IMG/VR virus record: IMGVR_UViG_3300032323_003610
Coordinates: 4,760 to 68,759 of that record
Length of the DNA: 64,000 nucleotides
Direction: 5' to 3' (one strand)
From: a virus
Position numbers and translations under genes: made by a program
In this document: piece by piece, positions 4,697 through 53,277 of the stretch
Numbering within the stretch: the stretch's first letter is position 1
Layout of the letters: every line of letters starts with the position of its first letter
Notes under the pieces: generated by a model
Told to the model about the DNA's origin: nothing
What the model saw: the letters and a program-made list of their open reading frames with translations, nothing else
Databases searched by the model: none

Positions 4697-7600
4697 TTAC
4701 GCAGACTGCTGAGCTGCAATAGTTCCTGTGTTTTGAATACGCATTGGTATGTAGATAAATTCTACAGCCTTGACTGGTTCAATTGCAATATCCACATACA
4801 ACTCGTTGGCATCAATTGTTGCAGGAGTATTGTTTGTTAGATCGCAAACCACCAGATAATCATACAGACCGCGCTTGTTGACCAGGTCAACCATGAGACT
4901 TGTTATCTGATTAGTAATCGCGGCTCTGGTAATGGTGTCGTTGGGTTCAAACAGGTATTGATTACCAATAATCTCCAGACGTCCACGGATGAATGCTACC
5001 AAACGTGCCACGTTGATACGGTCTAACGCTGTAGCTGTGCCTTGTAGAGTATGGTTACCAAAATTGGTAATACCCGTGCCAGGTATGAATGTAATTGGAT
5101 TTACATTGTTGCTGTACAACACATCACGTAGACCTTGATTTACTCCCAAGGGTGCAAACTCTCCGGTAGCAGCATCAAGATAACCAATCTGCAAGGCATT
5201 GTCCACTACTCCGCGGCGCAGTCCAGCAGGTGCAAACCAAGGATATGCCACGCTGTCACTACGAATAATTGTACGCAACATCATGTGACTTGGTGCGGTC
5301 ACAACCACGTTGCCGGTCAGATCAGTTGTGGTACAGCTTGGGTAAAATGCAGCAGCATATGAATCACCGCCAGATAAATTTCCGTCACCGGTGGCCAGTC
5401 CAAGACCATTGTTGTTGGTTGACCATGTGACCACTTCGTCTGGAGTCAATCGTAACGGTGTGTCCACAATACTAAATGCCGTTTCACCGCGATCGTTATT
5501 GAGCACCACCATGTTGGGTGCCAATTCTGGATACTGTGTACACACTATCAAATTAAATTGCGCCTGCTGTTCACGTAACTGTGTGTTGGTATCAATGGCA
5601 ACTCGTAATGCTTGTACAATCAAGCTGCGTTGGGCCTGACGGCCCATATTGGGACTGCCGTCTGCACGGTTAGGGCTGGCTGTGACCCAGGCATTGGTCT
5701 GGCTGGGCAATACCAATGGTGCTGGATAGTCCTGACTATTAAAATAGTTGACCTGGAATGATTTAACATTAAATCCACTACGGCGTGTGTTGAACAACAA
5801 GATACCTTCAGGATACAGATCAGGATTGGGTGCATCAAGATCCAGATAGTTGCTGGTGATCAATGGTGTTGAACCTGAGGCAATCGGTGGAATTGGATCT
5901 GTGATGGGATTCGTTGTGCCGTTAGGAGCCCAACGTGCATCGGCAAAAAGTACTCCATTGATCGTGGTCTGATCGGAGTTGTTTATGATAACCCACTGAT
6001 CTTCGCCATTGACCGGTTGCCAACGACTGATTACCGGATAGTTTTCCAGGTCGGCGGTATTGATCCACAAGTCGCCGTAGGCCAGTGGACTTTCTGCTGA
6101 ATCGGTCTGCGTGACCGGTGCTGTGGCACTGAATATTGGTCCAGAAGCATTGGTCAAACTCAGATCAAATCCACGAACATCATTGTCGACGTTTTGATAC
6201 CCAACCCAGTTACCGTTGTTTTGTATCATGATGTCGGCAGTAGTTGCATCGCTGTAGTACCACAGAGTGCCGTCAGCCGGATCAATGTTTGGTGCACTGG
6301 CAGATGCTGTATAAACAAAAGTTGGGCTACCAACCCAGTTGCTGAGCGTGAGGCCTGTGCCGTCAACATCAGTCTGAGTAATTCCGGTTACTGCTGTAGT
6401 AAACCCAGCATCCACAATTGGAGTATTGGTGCCGTCTACTAGATAAATGTCACCACCGGTGGCATGTGTGAAGAAAATTGCGCCGGCAGCATTTACACTA
6501 GCACTGACATTGTCAACTCCGGCAGCACTGACAGCTGCTACAAAGTCAGCTGCTGTAGTACCGTTAATAGTCACAGTTACTGGAGCCGCTACCACAGTTG
6601 ACTCAGGCTGTGTGGCAGCCAATGTAAATGTGGATGCATTGACAAAGGTAGGATTTTCAACAGCACCAGTAATTACCGTGGCGCCAGGAGACAATCTTTC
6701 AAGAATCAACGCACCAGATGTGGCGTTGTTATAGGGATCGATCTGAGCGTATGTGGTACCAGCTGGAATTGATTGACCGCCCGAAGTTGGATCCAGTGCA
6801 TAGAGTGCGGCAGCATTGTTGGCATAAACTGGACAACTTTGCAATACAAACACACCCAGGGTAGTGTCATAACGTTTGACCTGAATCTGCATGCCTTGAT
6901 TTACACTGTTGGTCTGTTGAAAAACACTGCCGGTGGGTTCTGGTTGTACATCTGTGGACCGCCATCTTGGTGCACTGAAGTTTGGACCAGCAAAATAAGC
7001 AGGAGCTGCATATTCGCCTGCATCAATATCCAACGTGGCCAACGGAGTGCCGCTGACGTTGTTGATGGCAATAACGCCTGTGCCTTCAGTGCTGCCGTCA
7101 TTGGTTGCTGTGCTGTCTGCGTACAGTGTTAATTTTCCACCAATGTTGGCAGCATAAACTCCACTGGCATTTAAGGCAGCATTGATGTCTGTGACCAAAC
7201 GAGTCACGGTATTGTTGGGACTGGCTTGAACTGTGATTGTAACATCATTGATGGCAAAACTGTTGCCCACTGTCAAACTAGTAGGAGCAAGACCTCCCTG
7301 GATTGTGGGCCAAGCAGTTTTCCATTCGTCGCTACCAATCAACACCCAGGTGTTGTATAAATCTTGGGCACTGGCACCGTCTTGTATCCATCCAGGTGCT
7401 TGATTAACACCGTTAACTGTGGTGGGACCTCCACGCTTGTAGTAGGTTGGGTTGTACACGTTGGTAGCTGTGACTGCATAGTCACCAATACTGCCAAAAC
7501 TGGGCAAGGGTACTGTGCTGCCTGTTTCTAAAAACACTGTGTCAACAATTACACTGGGTGTTTTTCTTGTGAATGCAGAAGTGGATTGATTCCACTCGGT

Positions 7601-9665: not shown

Positions 9666-10436
9666 TTAGCCAATTACCCAGCTCAAGGGCTGGCTACCAT
9701 CAACATAGTTCTTGAGATCTTCGACCAGCTTGTCCATACTCATCTGTGCTTCGCTTTTCATAGCAGCACCGTTTAAGGTTCCACCGCCCTGTGGACCGGC
9801 AATTGTACCAAATTTTTCACGGGCTTCGCCAATGATTAATTTGCAAGTGGCGGTCATGTAGTCACGGAACCATTGTACAATTTGAAAATCACTTAGTAAA
9901 TTAAATTCAGGTTTAAGATTATAACACCACACCAGAACATTTTCACCAGTACCTTTAGGATCTCTTATCAGTTGTAGTTTTTTGGTCACAGGGTTGAATG
10001 TGTAGTTCATGTAGGCGCCAAACATACGTCCGGCCAGTTCTACATATTGGCTATAAAAATCAAATGTGGCCAGACCACCTGCCACGTTGAAATTCATTAG
10101 ATACACATTTATACTGGCCTGGCTGAACGGATCAAAGTTTGACGCAAACGGACCGGTGCTATCACCAAATGTTCTGCGAAAAATCTGTCGCACTGTCTGT
10201 ACTTCCTGTGGTAAGGTATAGATGTTGACATCTCGTACCAGTTCCATAAAGATATAGCTTTCTTCATAGGCGTTCTGTGCTCGTTGCCGATACACACCTA
10301 GAGTGCGTTGATATGCTGCTTCAAAATGAGCTGCATCCAGTTCAATATCAACAATGCCATCGCCCAGTTGCAGGCGCACATAATCAATAAGATTTTGTTT
10401 TAGGGTGTCTAAGCTGGATTGATTTTCTAAGGCCAT
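9666..10436 (-). CDS. Neck protein (gp13-like head-tail adaptor)
   Basis: LIDYVRLQLGDGIVDIELD...LIIGEAREKF.TIAGPQGG.TLNG..MKSEA. Confidence 0.88.
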   Translation of the reverse strand: MALENQSSLDTLKQNLIDYVRLQLGDGIVDIELDAAHFEAAYQRTLGVYRQRAQNAYEESYIFMELVRDVNIYTLPQEVQTVRQIFRRTFGDSTGPFASNFDPFSQASINVYLMNFNVAGGLATFDFYSQYVELAGRMFGAYMNYTFNPVTKKLQLIRDPKGTGENVLVWCYNLKPEFNLLSDFQIVQWFRDYMTATCKLIIGEAREKFGTIAGPQGGGTLNGAAMKSEAQMSMDKLVEDLKNYVDGSQPLSWVIG

Positions 10437-10471
10437 ATATAGGGGACTCCGTGTCCCCTGTATTTAGTAGT

Positions 10472-11617
10472 TTACCAGGCCCATAGTATGATCAAGTTGT
10501 CGTTGCCACGACCGTTAAACTTAGTTTCTGTTGCTTTGATTTCAACAAATGCTTTACGGGCTGCAGGTTTACCGCCGCCTGTAACTGCTTTAATTGATTC
10601 TGCAGGTTTACGTAGGGTTTTTTGTACAGTTGTTTGAGCATCAAATCCTACAATAGCACTACCTTTAATTGTAAAGGTCCCAATGTGACTATCTGCCACA
10701 ACATGGATAAGTTTGCGTTTGGCTGTGTCATATAACCAGGCTTCGCTGGCATTTACTAGTTTTGTAACTGGTTCTGACTTGAGGTTAAGTTCATCAAACT
10801 CTCGCAGGAACTTGAATTTACGGCTTAATTTTTCTGGACTTACTGCTTTTTTGGCACGTGGTTTGCGTTCTACTTTTTTCAGTTGAACGTAACTGGCGCA
10901 ATCGTTGATTACAGTTTCGCAGAATTTCACACACTGCTTTAATTGGTTCTTGTTAAGATGGCTATATCCTTCAACTAGGTCTGGATCAACTCCTTCTAAT
11001 ACTTCTGTAAACTCAGCCAGACGTAGCTCCCAAACTGTACTCACAGTTCCTATCATGTTGGGACTAATGTTCATACCACGCATGAGTTTGATTGGACTAA
11101 AGTCTGCACTCATCTTGGCACCGGCTACAACAAAATCATCAAACATGCCTTCGAGTTCGCCACAACACTCTGATACTTTTTCACGCAGATGATCTTGAAT
11201 TGTGAGTTTAGCTACTGCGGCCTCTGAGTCAACTTCTGATTGCTCTCGTTTCTTTTCTTGTTTGACTTTGAGCATGGCACTAATCTGTTCGTCAACAATA
11301 CCTTGTTCATGATCGTTGAGTACCAGGCCAAGTAAAGTCATGCGACATACCCAAGCCGGTGTAAGACGAATTTGACTGTCAGGGATACCACGCATGGTCT
11401 TAGCGTCTACCTTGCGGCCGTTGTGCTCTAAATAATGGCACAGCATTTCTTTGGCGTCTTTTTTGCCATAGTGATAGTTATACCACTGGAACGCATTGGC
11501 CAAACTGCTGATGCGATTTTCTTCTGTAGGTTGGAATTTCCACTCTGGTTCAAACCCAACATATTTGGTTTCAGCACCCTTGGGGTTTAGTCTTTTGATT
11601 TCGTTTGATTTAGCCAT
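10472..11617 (-). CDS. Hypothetical early protein (381 aa)
   Basis: Long ORF with basic C-terminal domain, preceded by a TTGACA/TACAAT promoter. Confidence 0.75.
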   Translation of the reverse strand: MAKSNEIKRLNPKGAETKYVGFEPEWKFQPTEENRISSLANAFQWYNYHYGKKDAKEMLCHYLEHNGRKVDAKTMRGIPDSQIRLTPAWVCRMTLLGLVLNDHEQGIVDEQISAMLKVKQEKKREQSEVDSEAAVAKLTIQDHLREKVSECCGELEGMFDDFVVAGAKMSADFSPIKLMRGMNISPNMIGTVSTVWELRLAEFTEVLEGVDPDLVEGYSHLNKNQLKQCVKFCETVINDCASYVQLKKVERKPRAKKAVSPEKLSRKFKFLREFDELNLKSEPVTKLVNASEAWLYDTAKRKLIHVVADSHIGTFTIKGSAIVGFDAQTTVQKTLRKPAESIKAVTGGGKPAARKAFVEIKATETKFNGRGNDNLIILWAW

Positions 11618-23955: not shown

Positions 23956-24125
23956 GGCTCTCTCCAGTTTATGGTCTTAACAGCCGCGAATTTTTCAAGG
24001 CTATGACATATTTACCAAGGTCGTGACAAATGACATTTGTGCGCGGTTTATTTGCACTATATTTGCTCAAGAGCTAATTGTGTGTAAAAATGCGTGTTTT
24101 TGATACCGCTAGACCAGGATTTGTA

Positions 24126-25130
24126 TTACAAATATCTGATGTCGATCACGTCACTCACTGCTGGAGCTTCAGTAAAAATCAAGTTTACACTGGGGCTTGG
24201 ACTGATGTTGTAAGCAGTTCCAGGCAACTGAGTCACTCCGTTCAGCATGATCAAGGCCGCAGCGCTGGTGGTTGATCGATTCAAGGTAAATGCCACAGTG
24301 GTTCCGTCACCGTTGAATGTTTGATTGGTCACGCCGCTTACAATTTGATCCCACTCGGTACCATCGTACACTTCAACTCGTAAGTTGTCAGAGTTGAATC
24401 TCATGGTGCCTTCGCTGGCAGGACTAGGGCGTTGAGCAGTGTTACCCACAGGTAAAATTAAACCGGTTGTGGTGTCAATTGAAACGATTCCATTACCAGT
24501 GGGCTGAATAAAGATATTGGCAATGGTACCATCTGTGGTTATAGTTGTATTGGAAATTTGCAAATTGCCAATACTGACATTACCGGGCTGATTTGTAACA
24601 CCAATTGCACCTACGTATTCGTAACCTGAAATATAAACCACGTTTCCTGCGGTCAATACTGTTGGAATTGTTTCTCCAATAAAGTTCAGCACTCCTGCTT
24701 GTGTGTCAAAGTAATATTCGCCAACTCCGCCAATGCCCGCGGCAAATATTTGAGTGCCAGTGGCTTGAATGTTGGCTGCTGCTGCAGGTCCTACATATAC
24801 TTTAGGCAACCAGGTAGCACCCATTTCCTGCGGAATCCAATAAGATACACCTGACAGCCAGGTTGGATATATGTTGCCAATGGGCGGAACTGTGGTATCT
24901 GCCACACACTGCACTGAATTGCTGTTTATTCGAGCGTTTGAAATTCCCGAGACAGCTTGAGCCGTGGCGGGTATCTGATTGCTTTCCATCCAGATAATGT
25001 CACCGCGCAAGAAAGCAGGGCTAGCGATACTTTCGTTGCTGGCGCTTTTGACTGTGCTGTTGGCTGTTTTTGCAACACCCTGCAGTTTTTTAAACAGTAG
25101 GTCAACGTATTGTGCTATTGAGACGGCCAT
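24126..25130 (-). CDS. Fibre/baseplate-associated structural protein
   Basis: Start MAVSIAQ at the TAATG overlap (25130). C-terminal LPVGNTAQRP...MRFN and GDGTTVAFTL...FTEAP modules. Confidence 0.75.
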   Translation of the reverse strand: MAVSIAQYVDLLFKKLQGVAKTANSTVKSASNESIASPAFLRGDIIWMESNQIPATAQAVSGISNARINSNSVQCVADTTVPPIGNIYPTWLSGVSYWIPQEMGATWLPKVYVGPAAAANIQATGTQIFAAGIGGVGEYYFDTQAGVLNFIGETIPTVLTAGNVVYISGYEYVGAIGVTNQPGNVSIGNLQISNTTITTDGTIANIFIQPTGNGIVSIDTTTGLILPVGNTAQRPSPASEGTMRFNSDNLRVEVYDGTEWDQIVSGVTNQTFNGDGTTVAFTLNRSTTSAAALIMLNGVTQLPGTAYNISPSPSVNLIFTEAPAVSDVIDIRYL

Positions 25131-29074: not shown

Positions 29075-29845
29075 TTACGAAGTGTAGTTTTCCACAATGG
29101 CCAGATCTAAATTGCCAGTGCTGAGCTGGCTAGTGCCGGCCCAGGTTGCAGTATCTGCGCCAGATTTGGCTGTTACACCTTCATCGCTGAAGAAGTTGGC
29201 TGCAAAGGTCACGTTGTTGACCACTTGAGTATAGTTCCAAACATCGCCTGTGTCGGCATTGCCACCTGCTTCACCGCCGTTAAAGTTCTGCAAGAACTTG
29301 TTGGTCAGCTTGCTGATTGCTGTTTCAGAACTGTCGTTGCTGAAGTAGCTGATACTCATGTTGCCGGCTGTGGGGCTTAGGTCGTTGGCCAATACACAGA
29401 TACCAACTGCGTTAACTGCACCTGTGCCGGTATCAGCTAAAGCACTAGTGGCTGTGAAAATTGTACCAATTTGTGCATTAGGAGCACCATATGCGGCCCA
29501 GTCAGTGTTGCCAACCACAGTGATGCGATATGCTTGGCCCGATACCAGTGCGGTTCTGCTTGTGGCATCTGCTACCAAAAACTTGTGTGCGCCTTTTTGA
29601 CGAATAATGAATCCGTCGGCTTCGGCAAAGCCTGTTATAAACACACGCACTTTCACAATAGGATATGTGGCTGTGGCCAAGGTAGGTGGCTGTGTGCCGC
29701 CCACTACGCCAAGATATTCTGTGTCTGTGTTCCAGATAGGACTTGGTGTTACAGGATTGGTCAAGGTTAAGAGACCGTTGAATCCAATATCTACTCCAGG
29801 ATTACCTGTTTCGATGATTTTTTTAATTTTGAGAGGACGTCCCAT
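29075..29845 (-). CDS. Virion structural protein (MGRPLK...), function unknown
   Basis: 256 aa with a strong AAGGAG SD, its own late promoter and a terminator, which suggests high expression. Confidence 0.7.
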   Translation of the reverse strand: MGRPLKIKKIIETGNPGVDIGFNGLLTLTNPVTPSPIWNTDTEYLGVVGGTQPPTLATATYPIVKVRVFITGFAEADGFIIRQKGAHKFLVADATSRTALVSGQAYRITVVGNTDWAAYGAPNAQIGTIFTATSALADTGTGAVNAVGICVLANDLSPTAGNMSISYFSNDSSETAISKLTNKFLQNFNGGEAGGNADTGDVWNYTQVVNNVTFAANFFSDEGVTAKSGADTATWAGTSQLSTGNLDLAIVENYTS

Positions 29846-29941
29846 TTTGTTTTCTCCTTAAAGAAGCCCAATGTGGGTTCTAGCCACTACGCGGCTGGGT
29901 AAGAGCCGCATAAAACGCCTTATTGCGTTGACAAGTATTTA
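29846..29941 (-). promoter_or_regulatory. Late promoter plus structured 5' leader
   Basis: TAAATA at 29941-29936, followed by three hairpins before the SD. Confidence 0.6.
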
Positions 29942-41222: not shown

Positions 41223-41653
41223 CCTATCAGTACGCCAGGATTGATTTGCACAAAAACACCTATCAACCCACAGTAGATTGGTATTATATCACTGAGCCCA
41301 ACATCGCAGTTCTGCAAGATATCTATAGAACCTATTGCATCTACAAACATTTTGCAAGTGTGATGCCCTTGTTTGATTCGCAATTTACTGATCCTATGAC
41401 TGATGTTATTGGCTACCGTGAGCAGGGACAGTTGGTGGCATTTAGTTTAATGAAACGCTACGACGATAAAAATGTCTTGGCTAGCCAATTTGCATGGACT
41501 TACCATAACCCACGCACCAAACTGGGAGTAGAAAGTTTAAAAACAGAGTGTGCTGTGTATCGAGAACGAGGTTTTCGGTACTTGTATCTGGATCAAGCAC
41601 ACCTGTACAAACAAGGCCTTGAAGGCTTCGAAATTTTAGGAGGATTACAATAA
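41219..41653 (+). CDS. GNAT-fold protein resembling arginyl/aminoacyl-tRNA-protein transferase C-terminal domain
   Basis: GY...GQLVAFS...QFAWTY..P..KLG..SL..E......GFRYLYL.....YK pattern, as in ATE1/Bpt C-domains. Confidence 0.55.
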   Translation: MTYQYARIDLHKNTYQPTVDWYYITEPNIAVLQDIYRTYCIYKHFASVMPLFDSQFTDPMTDVIGYREQGQLVAFSLMKRYDDKNVLASQFAWTYHNPRTKLGVESLKTECAVYRERGFRYLYLDQAHLYKQGLEGFEILGGLQ

Positions 41654-41988
41654 TGGCAGACTTATACACAATCTGGGCCAGCAAAGCTGGTGACATCAGC
41701 GACACAGAATTTGTTGACAACATGCGCGGTTTCTTGCAACATCTAGTGGACGAAAACAAGATGATATCTTTTAGAATCACTCGTTGTAAAATGGGCTTTC
41801 GCAGTGTGGCTGACATGCCCGAATGGTTTATCCTGATGGAATTTCGTGACATGGCACAAATTGATGAAGCGTTCCGTCGCGTTGCTCCATTAAGTGGCGA
41901 ACTAGAAGACAAGCATCGGAGTTTTAATCAGTTTGTTGGTGGAGATATACAACACGCACTTTGGCGTGATTATCCTGATACATTCTGA
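41653..41988 (+). CDS. Small dimeric alpha-beta barrel-like protein (DUF6614-like)
   Basis: 111 aa, FRITRCKMGFRS...PEWFILMEF.DMAQ.D.AF. Confidence 0.5.
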   Translation: MADLYTIWASKAGDISDTEFVDNMRGFLQHLVDENKMISFRITRCKMGFRSVADMPEWFILMEFRDMAQIDEAFRRVAPLSGELEDKHRSFNQFVGGDIQHALWRDYPDTF

Positions 41989-41989
41989 T

Positions 41990-42400
41990 TGATGTTTAGA
42001 GATTAGCTGCGCTAATCTATGTGTGTCGCTACGCTCACACATGATTGTCTTTCTCTTGCATTATCCAGATTATGCGGTCACAATTCACCGTATGCACGGT
42101 GAACTGACTTCTACATTATCCGAGTTGTAGCTGTCATTTATCATAATGAGATTGTAGTTTCCTACGCGGAGGCGGTTGACCGGTACCCCCTACTCAAGCT
42201 TCACATATCAACGGAACCCTAGTGACCCGACGATAAATCCAAGTCCTACGAGCATGAGTTGTGTCTTTTTCACAGAGCTCAAACCATTTGTTGCCTTAAG
42301 TTAGCAATTGCCTTTGACGCCCAAAGTTTTCCAGACCGGGTATTGCACCGTTCTTCGATGGGGCCGGATCAAACATCCAGCACAGAGTCGGTAAAGTTGC
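41990..42400 (-). ncRNA. Candidate large structured ncRNA or cis-element
   Basis: ~410 nt without a credible ORF, at least 8 hairpins, a GAAA tetraloop on the minus strand and a duplicated GGATAATG loop motif. Confidence 0.55.
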
Positions 42401-42401
42401 C

Positions 42402-43403
42402 TTACTGTATTTCTATGTTTGTAATTTTACTTTTTGACAAGTCGTGTATATTTGGTTCTAGTAATTGATGTAGTTGTTTTGTATTTGTAAATTTTTCTAG
42501 TTGCCAGGTTTTTAGGTTTAAATTGTGCTTATAAATTAATTCGTGTTGAATAATTGCTTCTTGTACAATGTCTAGATTTAATCTCATTAAATCTAAATCA
42601 TATCCTGATTTGATATTGTCAATAATGGTATCAAAATACCAAACAAATAACATTCTGTTAAGGTGAAATCTACGCCATTGATTATAAACAGTATTCCACT
42701 GTAATCGACGATCTTCGATTATAGGAACTCCTAAATAACTAAACAAATTGTCTACTGTTACATCAAATGTATTCCATAACTCCATTGTGTCTAACCGATA
42801 ATGTTTTTTTGATAAATCTATGTTTGGAATAATAGATACGTTGTGTGTGGGCATTAGATTTAATGCTAAAAATTCCCGTTGATCCCAGATGTTTATTAAC
42901 GACAATTCTTTCCACGCAGACCGAGAGTCTTTGAAAAAATAATCAATAAAATCTTCAAGTGCTTCGTGATCTGTGCTAATTTTTTTTGCTGGATCGTTCC
43001 GGGACTCGACTTCATCGCTACGAATTTTATATGATTTGTTATACAAAAAATGATTTTTAGATAATGTTAATATTATACGTTGATTGCTATCTAGATTAGA
43101 TATAGCCGTCGCAAGATCCTTATCATATGATGTTGTAGTAAATGAAAAATTATGAAAATATATAGTATGAAAATTATCCACCGGGGTTGACGCCAATGCC
43201 GAGTGTATTAAATTAAATGTATCTAATGTACTTGGCTGATTTGGTTTAAAAACGTGAGAATTTTTAATAGTTAACGGGTTTTCAGGAACAGTTATCCAAC
43301 GGTTTGATTTAGCATGATAGTAATTTTTATGTCCAGCAAGAAAGTGCAAACTCCATGTAAGGAATGTGCCGCCAACTCCAGGGTCAGTTAAAACTTCTAT
43401 CAT
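42402..43403 (-). CDS. AT-rich hypothetical protein, P-loop/sulfotransferase-like N-terminus
   Basis: DPGVGGTFLTWSLHFLAG resembles sulfotransferase PAPS loops. Markedly low GC. Confidence 0.45.
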   Translation of the reverse strand: MIEVLTDPGVGGTFLTWSLHFLAGHKNYYHAKSNRWITVPENPLTIKNSHVFKPNQPSTLDTFNLIHSALASTPVDNFHTIYFHNFSFTTTSYDKDLATAISNLDSNQRIILTLSKNHFLYNKSYKIRSDEVESRNDPAKKISTDHEALEDFIDYFFKDSRSAWKELSLINIWDQREFLALNLMPTHNVSIIPNIDLSKKHYRLDTMELWNTFDVTVDNLFSYLGVPIIEDRRLQWNTVYNQWRRFHLNRMLFVWYFDTIIDNIKSGYDLDLMRLNLDIVQEAIIQHELIYKHNLNLKTWQLEKFTNTKQLHQLLEPNIHDLSKSKITNIEIQ

Positions 43404-43419
43404 ACCTATTCTTTAAAAA

Positions 43420-43848
43420 TTAAATTTTGTTTTTGATGTGACTACCGTGTATACGGCAAACTATCTGTCCGTTGTACCAGTCGTCTGATTCTAATACTCT
43501 ATGATTGAATTGTTCTCTAGCTTCTACATAACTGCATTCTGCCTTTGATTTACAATAAAATAATATTTCTCTTGTGAAGTTGTCAGCGCCCAGCGCCAGT
43601 AGGTCTCGATTGAGTTGATCATTGCTGCCATAGTATAGTTGCCAGTCTGAATCAATTTTGCTTCTAATTTTTTTCTTTTTCTTGTTGCCGTTTTTTAATT
43701 TTATTACTTTGTATGAGGTTTTACTAAATTTTGCTAATTTTTTTCCAATGTACTTTCTTCCTGTTACCGTGTTTGTTATTAGGTAAACAAACCCTACACA
43801 GTCTTCGGGTAGTTGTTCAACGTGAGTGTTTTCGTACAACCATATCAT
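43420..43848 (-). CDS. Minimal GIY-YIG family nuclease
   Basis: GFVYLITN...GRKYIGKK...YYGS...FTREIL...E...YN. Confidence 0.88.
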   Translation of the reverse strand: MIWLYENTHVEQLPEDCVGFVYLITNTVTGRKYIGKKLAKFSKTSYKVIKLKNGNKKKKKIRSKIDSDWQLYYGSNDQLNRDLLALGADNFTREILFYCKSKAECSYVEAREQFNHRVLESDDWYNGQIVCRIHGSHIKNKI

Positions 43849-43872: not shown

Positions 43873-44736
43873 TCAACTCAGTTGAATTTCGTATTGCCAC
43901 TGGTCTTGAAATGCTGTAGTCTTGTTGCTAGTACAAACACTAGCACAGGTCTCATTTGGGTTATTTGTTTTCCATGTTTTTTTAACTTCACTAATGTTGG
44001 CTATGGGATTAACAATGCTGTTTCCTAACCAACAGCACGGAATTCTGCGTCCGCGGGCATCGACATATTCGCTTTTTTCCGCTAGGGCCTGGCACTTAAT
44101 TATACCAGTTTTGTTTTTGGGAACTTGCCAATCTATAGGTGCCTCCAGCCCGTTGACCATTGGGCGCTTACTGACCTTTGCCCTAAACCACTTGAATCCC
44201 ATGGTTCTGGCCAATTGTTCGCAAGCACTGACCTGATGTTGATTGTGTTTGTAAACAAGCATGTCCCAATGAGCATTACCATTCCCAGCAATAAATGCGG
44301 TTGCATTACTCATTAGCTTGCGCCAATCAACATTCCGCCTATAAATGGCGTTGGTGTCCTCTAATCCATCGATACTAAACACACAATAATCTCTGGGCTG
44401 GTTAAATATCTGTGCCAGTTCGTGCCACCAGAATGTTGTTTGTATGGCACCATTGGTATTCATACCTAATACAATATTGGGATTTATTGTTCTAAAATAT
44501 CTATACAAATCCAAGGTATATTTTCCAGCTGCTGGATCCCCATAGTTCCCGCACATGAACACTTTTTGTAATTGTGTCAACTGCATCTCGGAATATAGAT
44601 GTTGTATTTGTTCTACACGCAAGTGATGTTGTGCGGATTTATTAAAATCTGTCCTGGTTTCTCTAGCACACAAAGGGCATGCAGCCTGGCACACATCTGT
44701 GGGCTCTAAGTGAAGGACCTTGGTTTTACTAGACAT
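43873..44736 (-). CDS. Radical SAM protein with SPASM/twitch domain
   Basis: CQAACPLC (CxxxCxxC), CGNYGDP, SIDGL, C-terminal PCC...C..C. Confidence 0.9.
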   Translation of the reverse strand: MSSKTKVLHLEPTDVCQAACPLCARETRTDFNKSAQHHLRVEQIQHLYSEMQLTQLQKVFMCGNYGDPAAGKYTLDLYRYFRTINPNIVLGMNTNGAIQTTFWWHELAQIFNQPRDYCVFSIDGLEDTNAIYRRNVDWRKLMSNATAFIAGNGNAHWDMLVYKHNQHQVSACEQLARTMGFKWFRAKVSKRPMVNGLEAPIDWQVPKNKTGIIKCQALAEKSEYVDARGRRIPCCWLGNSIVNPIANISEVKKTWKTNNPNETCASVCTSNKTTAFQDQWQYEIQLS

Positions 44737-52254: not shown

Positions 52255-53277
52255 ATGGCCATTAATGAATTCCCACAAGATGTAGGCAACCCACCTGATC
52301 CGCAAGTTAGTTCGGGCGAAGAACCGGCAGTGCCAGCATCTTCAGTACGGTTTTCTGCTGCTGATCTTGATGCGCTGGCAGCTGCCAATGGAGTGGATGC
52401 CGGCAACACCGACATCGAAGTAGGAACTACTGATGCACAGTTGTTTGACGCAGAAGCCAGAGTTACTTCGCAAGTGCGCCAAGCACAAAACCAAGAAACC
52501 ACAGCAAACCTGACACAGTTTCCGCGCAACACCGACTGGCGAGTGACCTTGAGATTGGCGCCTGGGGCCAACTATCTATATAACGCACCAGATGCAGGCT
52601 TACTGCAACCACTCAAAACCACCAATGGCGTGGTGTTTCCGTTTACGCCAGCTATCAGCACAGCCTACAAGGCTGTCTATTCGGACTACAATCTTACTCA
52701 TTCAAACTATCGTGGGTACTTTTATCAAAACAGTTACACTGACGCGATCAATCTCACAGCCACTTTCACAGCGCAAAGCACAAGTGATGCGGCCTATGTG
52801 CTGGCAGTGATACACTTTTTTCGATCAGTGACCAAGATGTTTTACGGGCAGGATGCGCAACGTGGATCGCCGCCGCCGTTGACATACCTGAGTGGCCTGG
52901 GCGATTATCAATTCAACAATCACCCTTGCCTGGTCACTCAGTTCAACTATACCTTGCCAGCCGACGTGGACTATATCAGTTCAGGATCACCCAACAATCT
53001 GGGTTTGAATCTACAACCGCTACAAAATCTCTATAGCACCACACTGAATGCCGTGGCACCAACTGTAACTAGACTAGCGTCAGCATTCTTGCCGGTTGGC
53101 GCACAAAACAACATTCCTGCACCGTTACAGGCTCTGTTGGCCAATCCTACCTATGTGCCCACCAAAATGGACATGCAGATTACCCTGCTGCCAGTGCAGA
53201 GTCGCAGTCAGGTCAGCAAACAGTTTAGCCTTAGAAACTTTGCCAATGGCAATCTGCTGAGAGGAGGGTTCTGGTAA
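52255..53277 (+). CDS. Baseplate tail-tube cap/initiator (gp48/54-like)
   Basis: GVVFPFTP...THSNY...HFFRSVTKMFYG...PPP...LSGLG...LP.DVDY, upstream of gp53. Confidence 0.7.
   Translation: MAINEFPQDVGNPPDPQVSSGEEPAVPASSVRFSAADLDALAAANGVDAGNTDIEVGTTDAQLFDAEARVTSQVRQAQNQETTANLTQFPRNTDWRVTLRLAPGANYLYNAPDAGLLQPLKTTNGVVFPFTPAISTAYKAVYSDYNLTHSNYRGYFYQNSYTDAINLTATFTAQSTSDAAYVLAVIHFFRSVTKMFYGQDAQRGSPPPLTYLSGLGDYQFNNHPCLVTQFNYTLPADVDYISSGSPNNLGLNLQPLQNLYSTTLNAVAPTVTRLASAFLPVGAQNNIPAPLQALLANPTYVPTKMDMQITLLPVQSRSQVSKQFSLRNFANGNLLRGGFW

Follow-up and report, generated by a model that had tools for sequence, protein, structure and literature searches.

What is encoded by a stretch without open reading frames (ORFs) that is bounded on either side by the stop codon of an ORF running towards it, downstream of a gene for a GIY-YIG nuclease domain? 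The question is raised by positions 41989-42401 of a viral DNA segment of 64,000 nucleotides (nt), referred to here as the window (positions 4,760 to 68,759 of IMG/VR record IMGVR_UViG_3300032323_003610, a 68.8-kb viral record). The original prediction for this region, made from the letters of the DNA, described a hairpin-rich, undescribed RNA of about 400 nt which might partner the nuclease in the manner of HEARO/OMEGA systems, or else a structured replication or packaging site. As judged by comparison with related loci, 41989-42401 does contain, on its minus strand, a gene for a structured non-coding RNA, which is a member of a mobile-element family that includes the Rfam motif Polynucleobacter-1. 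On balance, the whole appears to us best explained as a mobile-element RNA gene with trans-acting recognition through two matching heptamers, its adjacency to the nuclease gene being something other than that of a guide to its enzyme.

Evidence for a structured RNA

Folding of the single sequence was close to chance (z = -0.70 for the plus and -0.90 for the minus strand, 100 shuffles), so that only comparison with relatives establishes structure. A protein search with the convergent neighbour, DUF6614, supplied 80 related viral loci among the matches listed. The stretch recurs in about 50 of these 80 at 70-92% nucleotide identity (blastn), in some of them at a distance of 1-2.5 kb from DUF6614, while a blastn query of GenBank phages with 41650-42420 returned no match. 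Compensatory changes are plain in the MAFFT alignment, and RNAalifold predicted 68 pairs from 36 sequences, 37 of them with changes on both sides. A curated structure of the 3' core (42053-42220), tested on 34 sequences, reached a covariation score of 0.195 versus 0.102 +/- 0.007 in shuffled alignments, none of 500 of which attained 0.195; controls in which the partners were slid gave 0.024-0.098.

Several observations bear on the strand. Some pairs are U-G or G-U in 35-36 of the 36 sequences, and their plus-strand equivalents are A-C mismatches; the alifold consensus energy is -136.9 kcal/mol on the minus versus -115.3 kcal/mol on the plus strand; and the GNRA tetraloop at 42154-42165 is present on the minus strand only, as originally claimed. 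There is no conserved ORF, the longest open frames (45-93 codons) differing in frame and position among the sequences, and a coding reading was rejected because these frames are short and shifting. Recurrence, covariation, G-U pairs valid on one strand, the GNRA loop and the lack of a stable frame together point to a minus-strand RNA gene that runs from about 42389 down to 42000, and so lend support to the prediction of a structured RNA some 400 nt long. Its transcription probably proceeds in the same direction as that of the upstream nuclease genes.

Known classes of RNA were sought by several routes. ARAGORN called 0 tRNA or tmRNA genes in the window, an Rfam scan of the whole window at gathering scores gave nothing in the region, and a scan of 41800-42600 with E-values up to 10 returned only a chance 5.8S match (E 5.5). 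Neither ARAGORN nor the Rfam models identified a tmRNA, tRNA or RNase P RNA, in agreement with the original prediction, which had recognised none of these, nor a group I intron core. The latter deserves comparison, as introns such as that of T4 td with I-TevI likewise place a GIY-YIG ORF, in a T4-like phage, beside a structured RNA 250-450 nt long. Here, however, no gene is interrupted: the stop codon of the nuclease lies on one side and a convergent gene, or a different sequence in relatives, on the other. The pseudoknot is of the simple H-type, without a P4-P6 or P8 arrangement. With differing flanks and no match to an Rfam intron, a group I intron was rejected.

The twin heptamers

The original prediction had pointed to two loops with the same motif, and these proved to be the most informative feature of the RNA. 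The motif, CATTATCC at 42059 and 42114 on the plus strand, corresponds to the heptamers of two repeat units of about 26 nt each, placed on either side of a hairpin termed H_d. Unit 1 presents (A)CUC and seven nucleotides inside a hairpin loop whose stem varies in sequence, and unit 2 presents (A)UCU and seven nucleotides behind a nearly invariant UGUGACC. Fourteen heptamer variants were seen among 149 sequences (examples being GGAUAAU, AGAUGAU, AGAUGAG, GGAUGAA, ACGAAAU and AUAGCAG), and in 148 of 157 distinct sequences the two heptamers of one RNA match over 6 nt or more. Inspected by eye, the nine that do not match comprise three chance-like pattern hits (L294 gave no covariance-model match; L321 and L329 were judged by eye only), three which are concerted with other flanks, two which are partly alike and one which is not.

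Equivalent positions of the two units share 0.94, 0.89 and 0.77 bits of mutual information, against at most 0.30 with any other core column and 0.17-0.25 among the variable positions themselves, a difference which indicates coupling beyond mere shared ancestry. Copies in bacterial genomes, too, repeat a single word, though a different one (AGCGAAA twice, GGCGAAA twice). The two loop words are under selection to stay identical while often changing.

Frequent but strictly paired change is the behaviour of recognition sequences whose partner changes too, for which reason a trans-acting recognition RNA seems to us a better reading than a nuclease guide, an element of a 3' untranslated region (UTR), a riboswitch-like leader or a DNA site. 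The pace of change, together with discrimination of single bases (G versus A), suggests base pairing rather than contact with a conserved host protein, and, the two copies being identical, the partner may itself be duplicated or symmetric. In such a mechanism the RNA would act in trans and owe its specificity to the heptamers, which would most likely pair with a doubled or symmetric nucleic acid encoded by the same element. The proximity of the GIY-YIG gene would reflect shared transcription and gene order.

Antisense immunity RNAs offer a parallel to concerted change. The c4 RNAs of P1/P7, the CI RNA of P4 and plasmid copy-control RNAs carry multiple short recognition sequences that change in concert and set the specificity of their element; they measure some 70-100 nt and have complementary targets in the same transcript or nearby. 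Loops of antisense RNAs follow the U-turn rule YUNR, and the CUCR and CURG that precede or overlap the heptamers here fit that rule. The present RNA shares the concerted words, but differs in its length of about 400 nt and in that no target was found. Its phages, moreover, resemble lytic T4-like phages, which are not known to have an immunity region. A more specific proposal, that a new class of mobile-element RNA uses the heptamers as programmable determinants of base pairing, displaying its word twice behind a U-turn-like motif so as to recognise a repeated or symmetric nucleic acid, is one we put forward tentatively and with considerable doubt. Such determinants might allow co-infecting relatives to tell self from non-self, in the manner of an antisense or exclusion system, or might guide the neighbouring nuclease in phages or the integrase in islands.

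Concerted direct repeats are also typical of operators bound by one protein, and the region lies between structural and DNA-metabolism modules. If it worked as a replication, packaging or protein-binding site on the DNA, the heptamers would be two operator-like sites about 55 bp apart. We nevertheless judge a DNA-level site highly improbable. Many of the invariant G-U pairs turn into A-C when read on the opposite strand, a GNRA loop accompanies a covarying pseudoknot, and the heptamer of unit 1 occupies the loop of a hairpin with a covarying stem. The replication or packaging site suggested originally is at odds with the same G-U pairs, which are valid on one strand only.

Architecture, family and carriers

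Common to all phage members are an H-type pseudoknot, an enclosed hairpin capped by a GNRA loop, two repeat units flanking a hairpin and two terminal hairpins (Table 1). Every hairpin originally listed was found in the sequence, and six of them are helices supported by comparison (42000-42018, 42019-42042, 42083-42104, 42111-42130, 42154-42165 and 42168-42190). Two other listed pairings fared less well: CTTTG/CAAAG (42312-26) competes with a long-range helix of better covariation, and GTCA/TGAC is not conserved.

Table 1. Coordinates in the window of the predicted RNA, its parts and the adjoining genes
Feature	Position	Strand	Remarks
DUF6614 gene, convergent neighbour	41653..41988	+	PF20319, E 4.9e-20
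Whole conserved RNA	42000..42389	-	5' GACUCUGUG at 42389; last hairpin ends at 42000
Less conserved leader with AGGCAAC	may extend to ~42401	-	
P1 hairpin GCUGGAU/AUCCGGC	42363..42381	-	6-7 bp hairpin in 36/36, from 29 different sequences
P2 three-part hairpin, outer CCCA/UGGG and two inner stems	42320..42362	-	RNAalifold
P4 hairpin, A-rich loop	42255..42281	-	pairs 136-139/162-165
P5 long hairpin, invariant G-U pairs	42216..42253	-	pairs 167-181/190-204
Pseudoknot 5' strand GUUGAU	42207..42212	-	pairs with 42175-42180 in 34/34
H_a helix, UGAG 42193-42196 with CUCA 42147-42150	42147..42196	-	encloses H_b and the GNRA hairpin
H_b hairpin GGGGGU...GCCUCC	42168..42190	-	loop GUCAAC 42175-42180 is the pseudoknot 3' strand
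H_c hairpin GUAG-GAAA-CUAC, GNRA tetraloop	42154..42165	-	100% paired; three counted pairs all covary
Repeat unit 1 hairpin CUACA/UGUAG	42111..42130	-	loop: ACUC and heptamer GGAUAAU (42115-42121)
H_d hairpin GUUCACCG/CGGUGAAU between the repeat units	42083..42104	-	compensatory exchanges
Repeat unit 2, AAUCU and heptamer GGAUAAU (42060-42066)	42058..42075	-	nearly invariant UGUGACC precedes
H_e hairpin, conserved GA/GAA internal loop (GAGC...GCGA)	42019..42042	-	RNAalifold
H_f terminal hairpin	42000..42018	-	terminator-like in relatives, UCUUUU after it
AT-rich 333-aa ORF, no family match	42402..43403	-	sits between nuclease gene and RNA
142-aa SegE-type GIY-YIG domain protein	43420..43848	-	PF19835, E 1.8e-32; phrog_447, E 3.9e-36

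Within the 5' part, the P2 pairs predicted by RNAalifold (50-53/93-96, 58-60/81-83 and 64-66/75-77) show CG/GC/GU/AU exchanges, P4 shows UA 22, GC 11 and AU 2 at one pair with GC 23 and AU 13 at another, and P5 has U-G at two positions in 36/36 sequences and G-U in 35/36, the plus-strand version being A-C. All cells (100%) of the six pseudoknot pairs are paired, with AU/UA/CG and UG/GC/CG exchanges at two. H_b is 99.5% paired, its closing pair being GC in 26 sequences and AU in 8, and H_a 98.5%, its first pair being UA in 17, AU in 15 and GC in 1. This covarying UGAG/CUCA helix took the place of the RNAalifold helix GAGU/ACUC (columns 225-228 with 305-308), which was dropped; by eye, an enclosing helix like H_a, with other sequences, is seen in the second type of the RNA described below (type B) and in bacterial copies. 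The loop of H_c is GNRA (GAAA, GCAA, GCGA) in most members, with longer or other loops in a few.

Around unit 1 a closing stem of some kind forms in 34/34 sequences, with shifts of register, and the local stem GCAU/AUGC of unit 2 is not conserved (53% paired); stems in fixed columns were therefore dropped for both units (57% and 53% paired). Between them, H_d exchanges CACCGU/ACGGUG for CACCCG/CGGGUG and UGCCCG/CGGGCA. Five of the six outer pairs of H_e are changed on both sides, and its GAGCG..GCGAA motif is also found in type B and bacterial copies. The stems of H_f (AGAUUAGC, AGAUCUCU, GAACUUC and AGAUGUGC) are each self-complementary, and a U-rich run follows this last hairpin in several relatives; a scan for consensus terminators did not call the H_f of the window.

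To what family does such an RNA belong? In sister phages its 5' 140 nt are the Polynucleobacter-1 motif, RF01718. Five of eight sister loci (L035, L072, L044, L051 and L059) match the full 141-position model at 99-119 bits, where the gathering score for membership is 37 bits, and the match begins directly after the GIY-YIG stop; bacterial copies are matched too. The resemblance has limits, as the model spans 141 nt and the RNA 400-480 nt across the family, and the window (41800-42600) has no RF01718 match even at E up to 10. The other three of the eight loci, which are of the window type, or type A (L021, L078 and L031), gave none either. Of the claim that the RNA was undescribed, then, the part concerning the 5' domain of the window stands, and the part concerning its equivalent in sister phages does not.

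Loci without a blastn match keep a gap of about 470 nt between DUF6614 and the GIY-YIG gene, and this gap houses a diverged homologue. A covariance model built from type A cores only matched all 14 of the tested type B loci, those with the Polynucleobacter-1 domain, over its full length (E 1e-9 to 4e-20), and had no match in bacterial copies, in Pseudomonas phage PA5oct or in L030, L048 and L080. Some rows of the 2010 seed alignment, which includes a copy from a Polynucleobacter strain (NC_009379), continue into the CCGUUG...GGUAYCG..AACCGCC pseudoknot that is also present in the window (PMC2864571). The model match across types and the pseudoknot of the seed therefore argue for one family with two 5' domains. 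A second sample, anchored on the pseudoknot motif, comprised 80 loci among the matches listed, of which 37 were type A, 38 type B, 3 neither and 2 too short. The 5' domain of the window is a second common form, invisible to Rfam.

A literature search found only one survey naming Polynucleobacter-1; in the portion accessible, Weinberg et al. (2010) list a 141-nt motif, classed as a probable RNA with a probable cis-regulatory role, in Burkholderiales and in fresh water or estuary (PMC2864571), a habitat and host range shared by the RNA described here. In that same portion of the survey, we found no phage context, 3' core, division into two types or twin heptamers (PMC2864571). The function of RF01718-type RNA is unassigned in Rfam, and the window RNA extends a known orphan motif.

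Large phage-borne structured RNAs of unassigned function are also known as GOLLD and ROOL. The GNRA loops and pseudoknots here suggest a compact fold; the RNA is smaller than either, however, and has no Rfam match to them. GOLLD and ROOL are reportedly homo-oligomers; nothing in the present results points to self-assembly.

The carriers are of two kinds, T4-like phages of fresh water and islands with an integrase in small Burkholderiales genomes. T4-type genes in the window encode a baseplate protein, an SbcC-like gp46 and radical SAM enzymes, and via gp46 the nearest cultured relative is the Pseudomonas jumbo phage PA5oct, at 53% identity. A pattern scan of bacterial genomes yielded at least 121 loci and, among the matches listed, one true homologue by nhmmer (L197, a 1746-bp contig of a metagenome-assembled genome). 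RF01718 lies above cut-off in 3 of 151 sampled Burkholderiales genomes and more weakly in one other, and all four genomes measure 1.7-1.9 Mb. By eye, these bacterial copies have the pseudoknot hairpin, the twin repeat units, the GAGCG..GCGAA hairpin and a terminator. Three of the four are divergent from a DUF6641 gene, the contig of the fourth ending too early; the ORF that follows has 224, 176 or 101 aa or is that of the integrase, and two of the four have a short tyrosine integrase beside them.

These bacterial neighbourhoods are pertinent to the class tentatively assigned in 2010, a ligand- or signal-sensing cis-regulator of the downstream gene. It has in its favour that the accessible survey text lists the motif as probably cis-regulatory (PMC2864571) and that a same-strand ORF follows the RNA in the four bacterial loci. 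Those ORFs differ from one another (224, 176 and 101 aa, and an integrase), however, and a terminator-like hairpin closes the RNA. In the phage loci anchored on DUF6614, as in the window, the RNA faces a convergent gene, which leaves nothing downstream to regulate. A cis-regulator of this kind is, in our estimation, improbable.

Certain other neighbourhoods may be recorded here. At L208 (L208:11762-19894, G054), four genes with MotB/OmpA, EH_Signature and SNF2+Mrr domains and a long upstream ORF lie beside the RNA, an assemblage which we take to resemble the Zorya defence system; at L209, a DNA methylase and a ResIII helicase adjoin it. PA5oct (L203, NC_071039) has at about 10020-11530 a stretch of some 1.5 kb with only four annotated ORFs, of 39-50 codons, between a resolvase-like gene and the baseplate hub, with a promoter-like TTGACA-17-TATAAT and a GC hairpin followed by T's. 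This syntenic stretch is unrelated to the RNA by nhmmer, Rfam and covariance model, and it is absent from the four non-coding RNAs in Table 1 of Lood 2020. The window itself contains a second candidate RNA, a match to Rfam freshwater-2 (RF02980) at 29843-29930 on the minus strand (70.4 bits versus a gathering score of 49.9).

The neighbouring nuclease and competing explanations

Does the RNA serve the nuclease? The 142-aa GIY-YIG ORF is present upstream and co-oriented, at 43420-43848, as originally described, and the linkage extends to relatives. Among the 70 RNA-anchored loci with enough upstream sequence, a GIY-YIG gene lies upstream in 58 (48 directly, 10 with an insertion of about 1 kb). 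PF24608 (PDDEXK_15) lies upstream in a further 6 (5 directly, 1 with an insertion), and neither nuclease in the remaining 6, where the RNA follows other genes (mazG-like or baseplate, for example); two of these exceptions have the nuclease elsewhere or on the other strand. DUF6614 is downstream of the RNA in 28/69 RNA-anchored loci only.

The RNA may be viewed as the partner or guide of the adjacent nuclease, its heptamers steering a dimeric GIY-YIG or PD-(D/E)XK enzyme to a repeated or palindromic target. A same-strand nuclease gene upstream in 64/70 loci (GIY-YIG 58, PDDEXK_15 6), an adjacency more constant than that of the downstream neighbour, speaks for this, as does a variable guide-like segment, which does exist, as two identical copies in the form of the twin heptamers. 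We nonetheless consider a nuclease guide unlikely. The slot is held by two unrelated nuclease folds, 6/70 loci have neither, genes of about 1 kb intervene in 11/70 loci and in the window, and the four bacterial copies adjoin other genes, DUF6641 in three and an integrase in two. Seven nucleotides are few for a guide, and no HEARO or other Rfam guide RNA family was matched. Nor does any GIY-YIG residue track the heptamer: in an alignment of 82 sequences, no column exceeded 0.48 of about 1 bit concerning the variable heptamer positions.

Much the same observations speak against the HEARO/OMEGA-like partnership of the original prediction, the GIY-YIG being replaced by an unrelated PD-(D/E)XK in some loci and both being absent upstream in others, the bacterial neighbours being different genes and no residue covarying. 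OMEGA/HEARO and IS110 bridge RNAs do resemble the present case in having a structured RNA with short variable loop segments beside a nuclease or recombinase gene. They differ in that the proteins here (GIY-YIG, PD-(D/E)XK and tyrosine integrase) are exchangeable, the two variable segments are mutually identical, and neither transposon ends nor an Rfam hit were seen. A HEARO/OMEGA guide RNA was rejected on the grounds of no Rfam match, a PF19835 GIY-YIG neighbour, no element ends and a syntenic locus.

The basic insert of the GIY-YIG protein, to which the original prediction drew attention, is a family feature, since residues 3-129 match the Pfam SegE_GIY-YIG profile over 1-123 of 123, basic segment included, and the phrog_447 match covers 9-143 of 148, PHROG 447 being a family of 148-aa proteins. 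A PDB sequence search gave a single weak and uninformative match (E 0.12). Being 65-90% identical and syntenic in relatives, the gene behaves as a resident rather than as a sporadic homing endonuclease, and a Seg-type homing endonuclease was rejected because the gene is non-sporadic and encodes, in 142 aa, the catalytic domain alone (no search for longer forms was made). The slot may be occupied either by this gene (43420-43848) or by a 171-aa PDDEXK_15 (L078:4702-5217), which matches phrog_244, annotated 'RusA-like Holliday junction resolvase'. A PA5oct gene with the RusA-like resolvase label (L203:9520-10017) is located near the same module boundary. With a resolvase-labelled protein in the same slot, the resident GIY-YIG may be a structure-specific nuclease and not a homing enzyme. 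From these results we infer that the adjacency probably stems from co-transcription and conserved gene order, rather than from an RNA-guided nuclease.

In a cis-acting explanation, the RNA would mark the end of an operon and serve, as a 3' UTR at a point of converging transcription, to terminate, insulate or stabilise the early transcript that reaches it from upstream. In phages the RNA is always at the 3' end of a string of minus-strand genes; it ends in two covarying hairpins, with a U-rich run after the last in several relatives, and no promoter stands out. Still, 400 nt with a pseudoknot, a GNRA hairpin and long invariant single strands are in excess of such a role, the RNA is kept despite changes of the upstream gene, and in bacteria three of four copies are divergent from the DUF6641 gene and ORFs follow in all four. 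We regard an end-of-operon element as quite unlikely.

The remaining features of the locus concern its immediate flanks. The AT-rich ORF (42402-43403) has 26-33% G+C in surroundings of about 45% and no match in Pfam, PHROG or PADLOC. It is absent at that position in most relatives, and is therefore an insertion, as had been surmised, one among several at RNA loci. Members of its family, which has no database match, occur elsewhere on the other side or strand of the RNA (L021:4318-5358 on the plus and L005:1963-2946 on the minus strand, for example), and their presence on either side and either strand across phages suggests a mobile gene. An AGGCAAC motif follows the GIY-YIG stop (about 42395-42401) in both RNA types and is absent where the upstream gene is PDDEXK_15 or another; it might be a processing or start signal. 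The stretch 41989-42401 is not the longest without an ORF, as had been stated, but the fourth largest gap left when the window is roughly covered with ORFs no shorter than 90 aa, after 23956-25129 (1174 nt), 52572-53276 (705 nt) and 44237-44728, the last probably an artefact of two overlapping ORFs.

Returning to the trans-acting recognition RNA that we favour, several points weigh against it. Both samples have an anchor, either one neighbouring gene or one pseudoknot motif. We infer the transcription of the minus-strand RNA, and consensus scans called no promoter or terminator for it, totals in the region being about those of shuffled sequence. Membership of the bacterial copies would rest on the RF01718 match and on architecture judged by eye, the type A model being blind to them. 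As to a pairing partner, the heptamer has no complement inside the RNA and no partner column; within 2 kb its complement shows no positional signal; in the window nothing exceeds chance; and the best complements in the contigs G157, G160 and G159 (160-320 kb) span 10-11 nt including G-U, which is chance level by expectation, without a shuffle control. As no complementary partner was found, a co-evolving dimeric protein could be the partner instead. Lastly, a nuclease adjacency of 64/70 across two unrelated folds could be more than synteny.

The finding exceeds a hairpin-rich gap and is in part already known, and the proposed service of the RNA to the nuclease finds no support. Polynucleobacter-1 can now be seen as a single domain within a longer RNA (400-480 nt) that T4-like phages and integrative islands carry, and for which a structural core is provided along with a second 5' form, equally common in our sample and undetected by Rfam. 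The concerted and frequent change of the two loops points to a specific partner and makes the function of the RNA testable. If that partner is a nucleic acid, mobile elements would have a recognition RNA of a new kind, present in phages that abound in fresh water.

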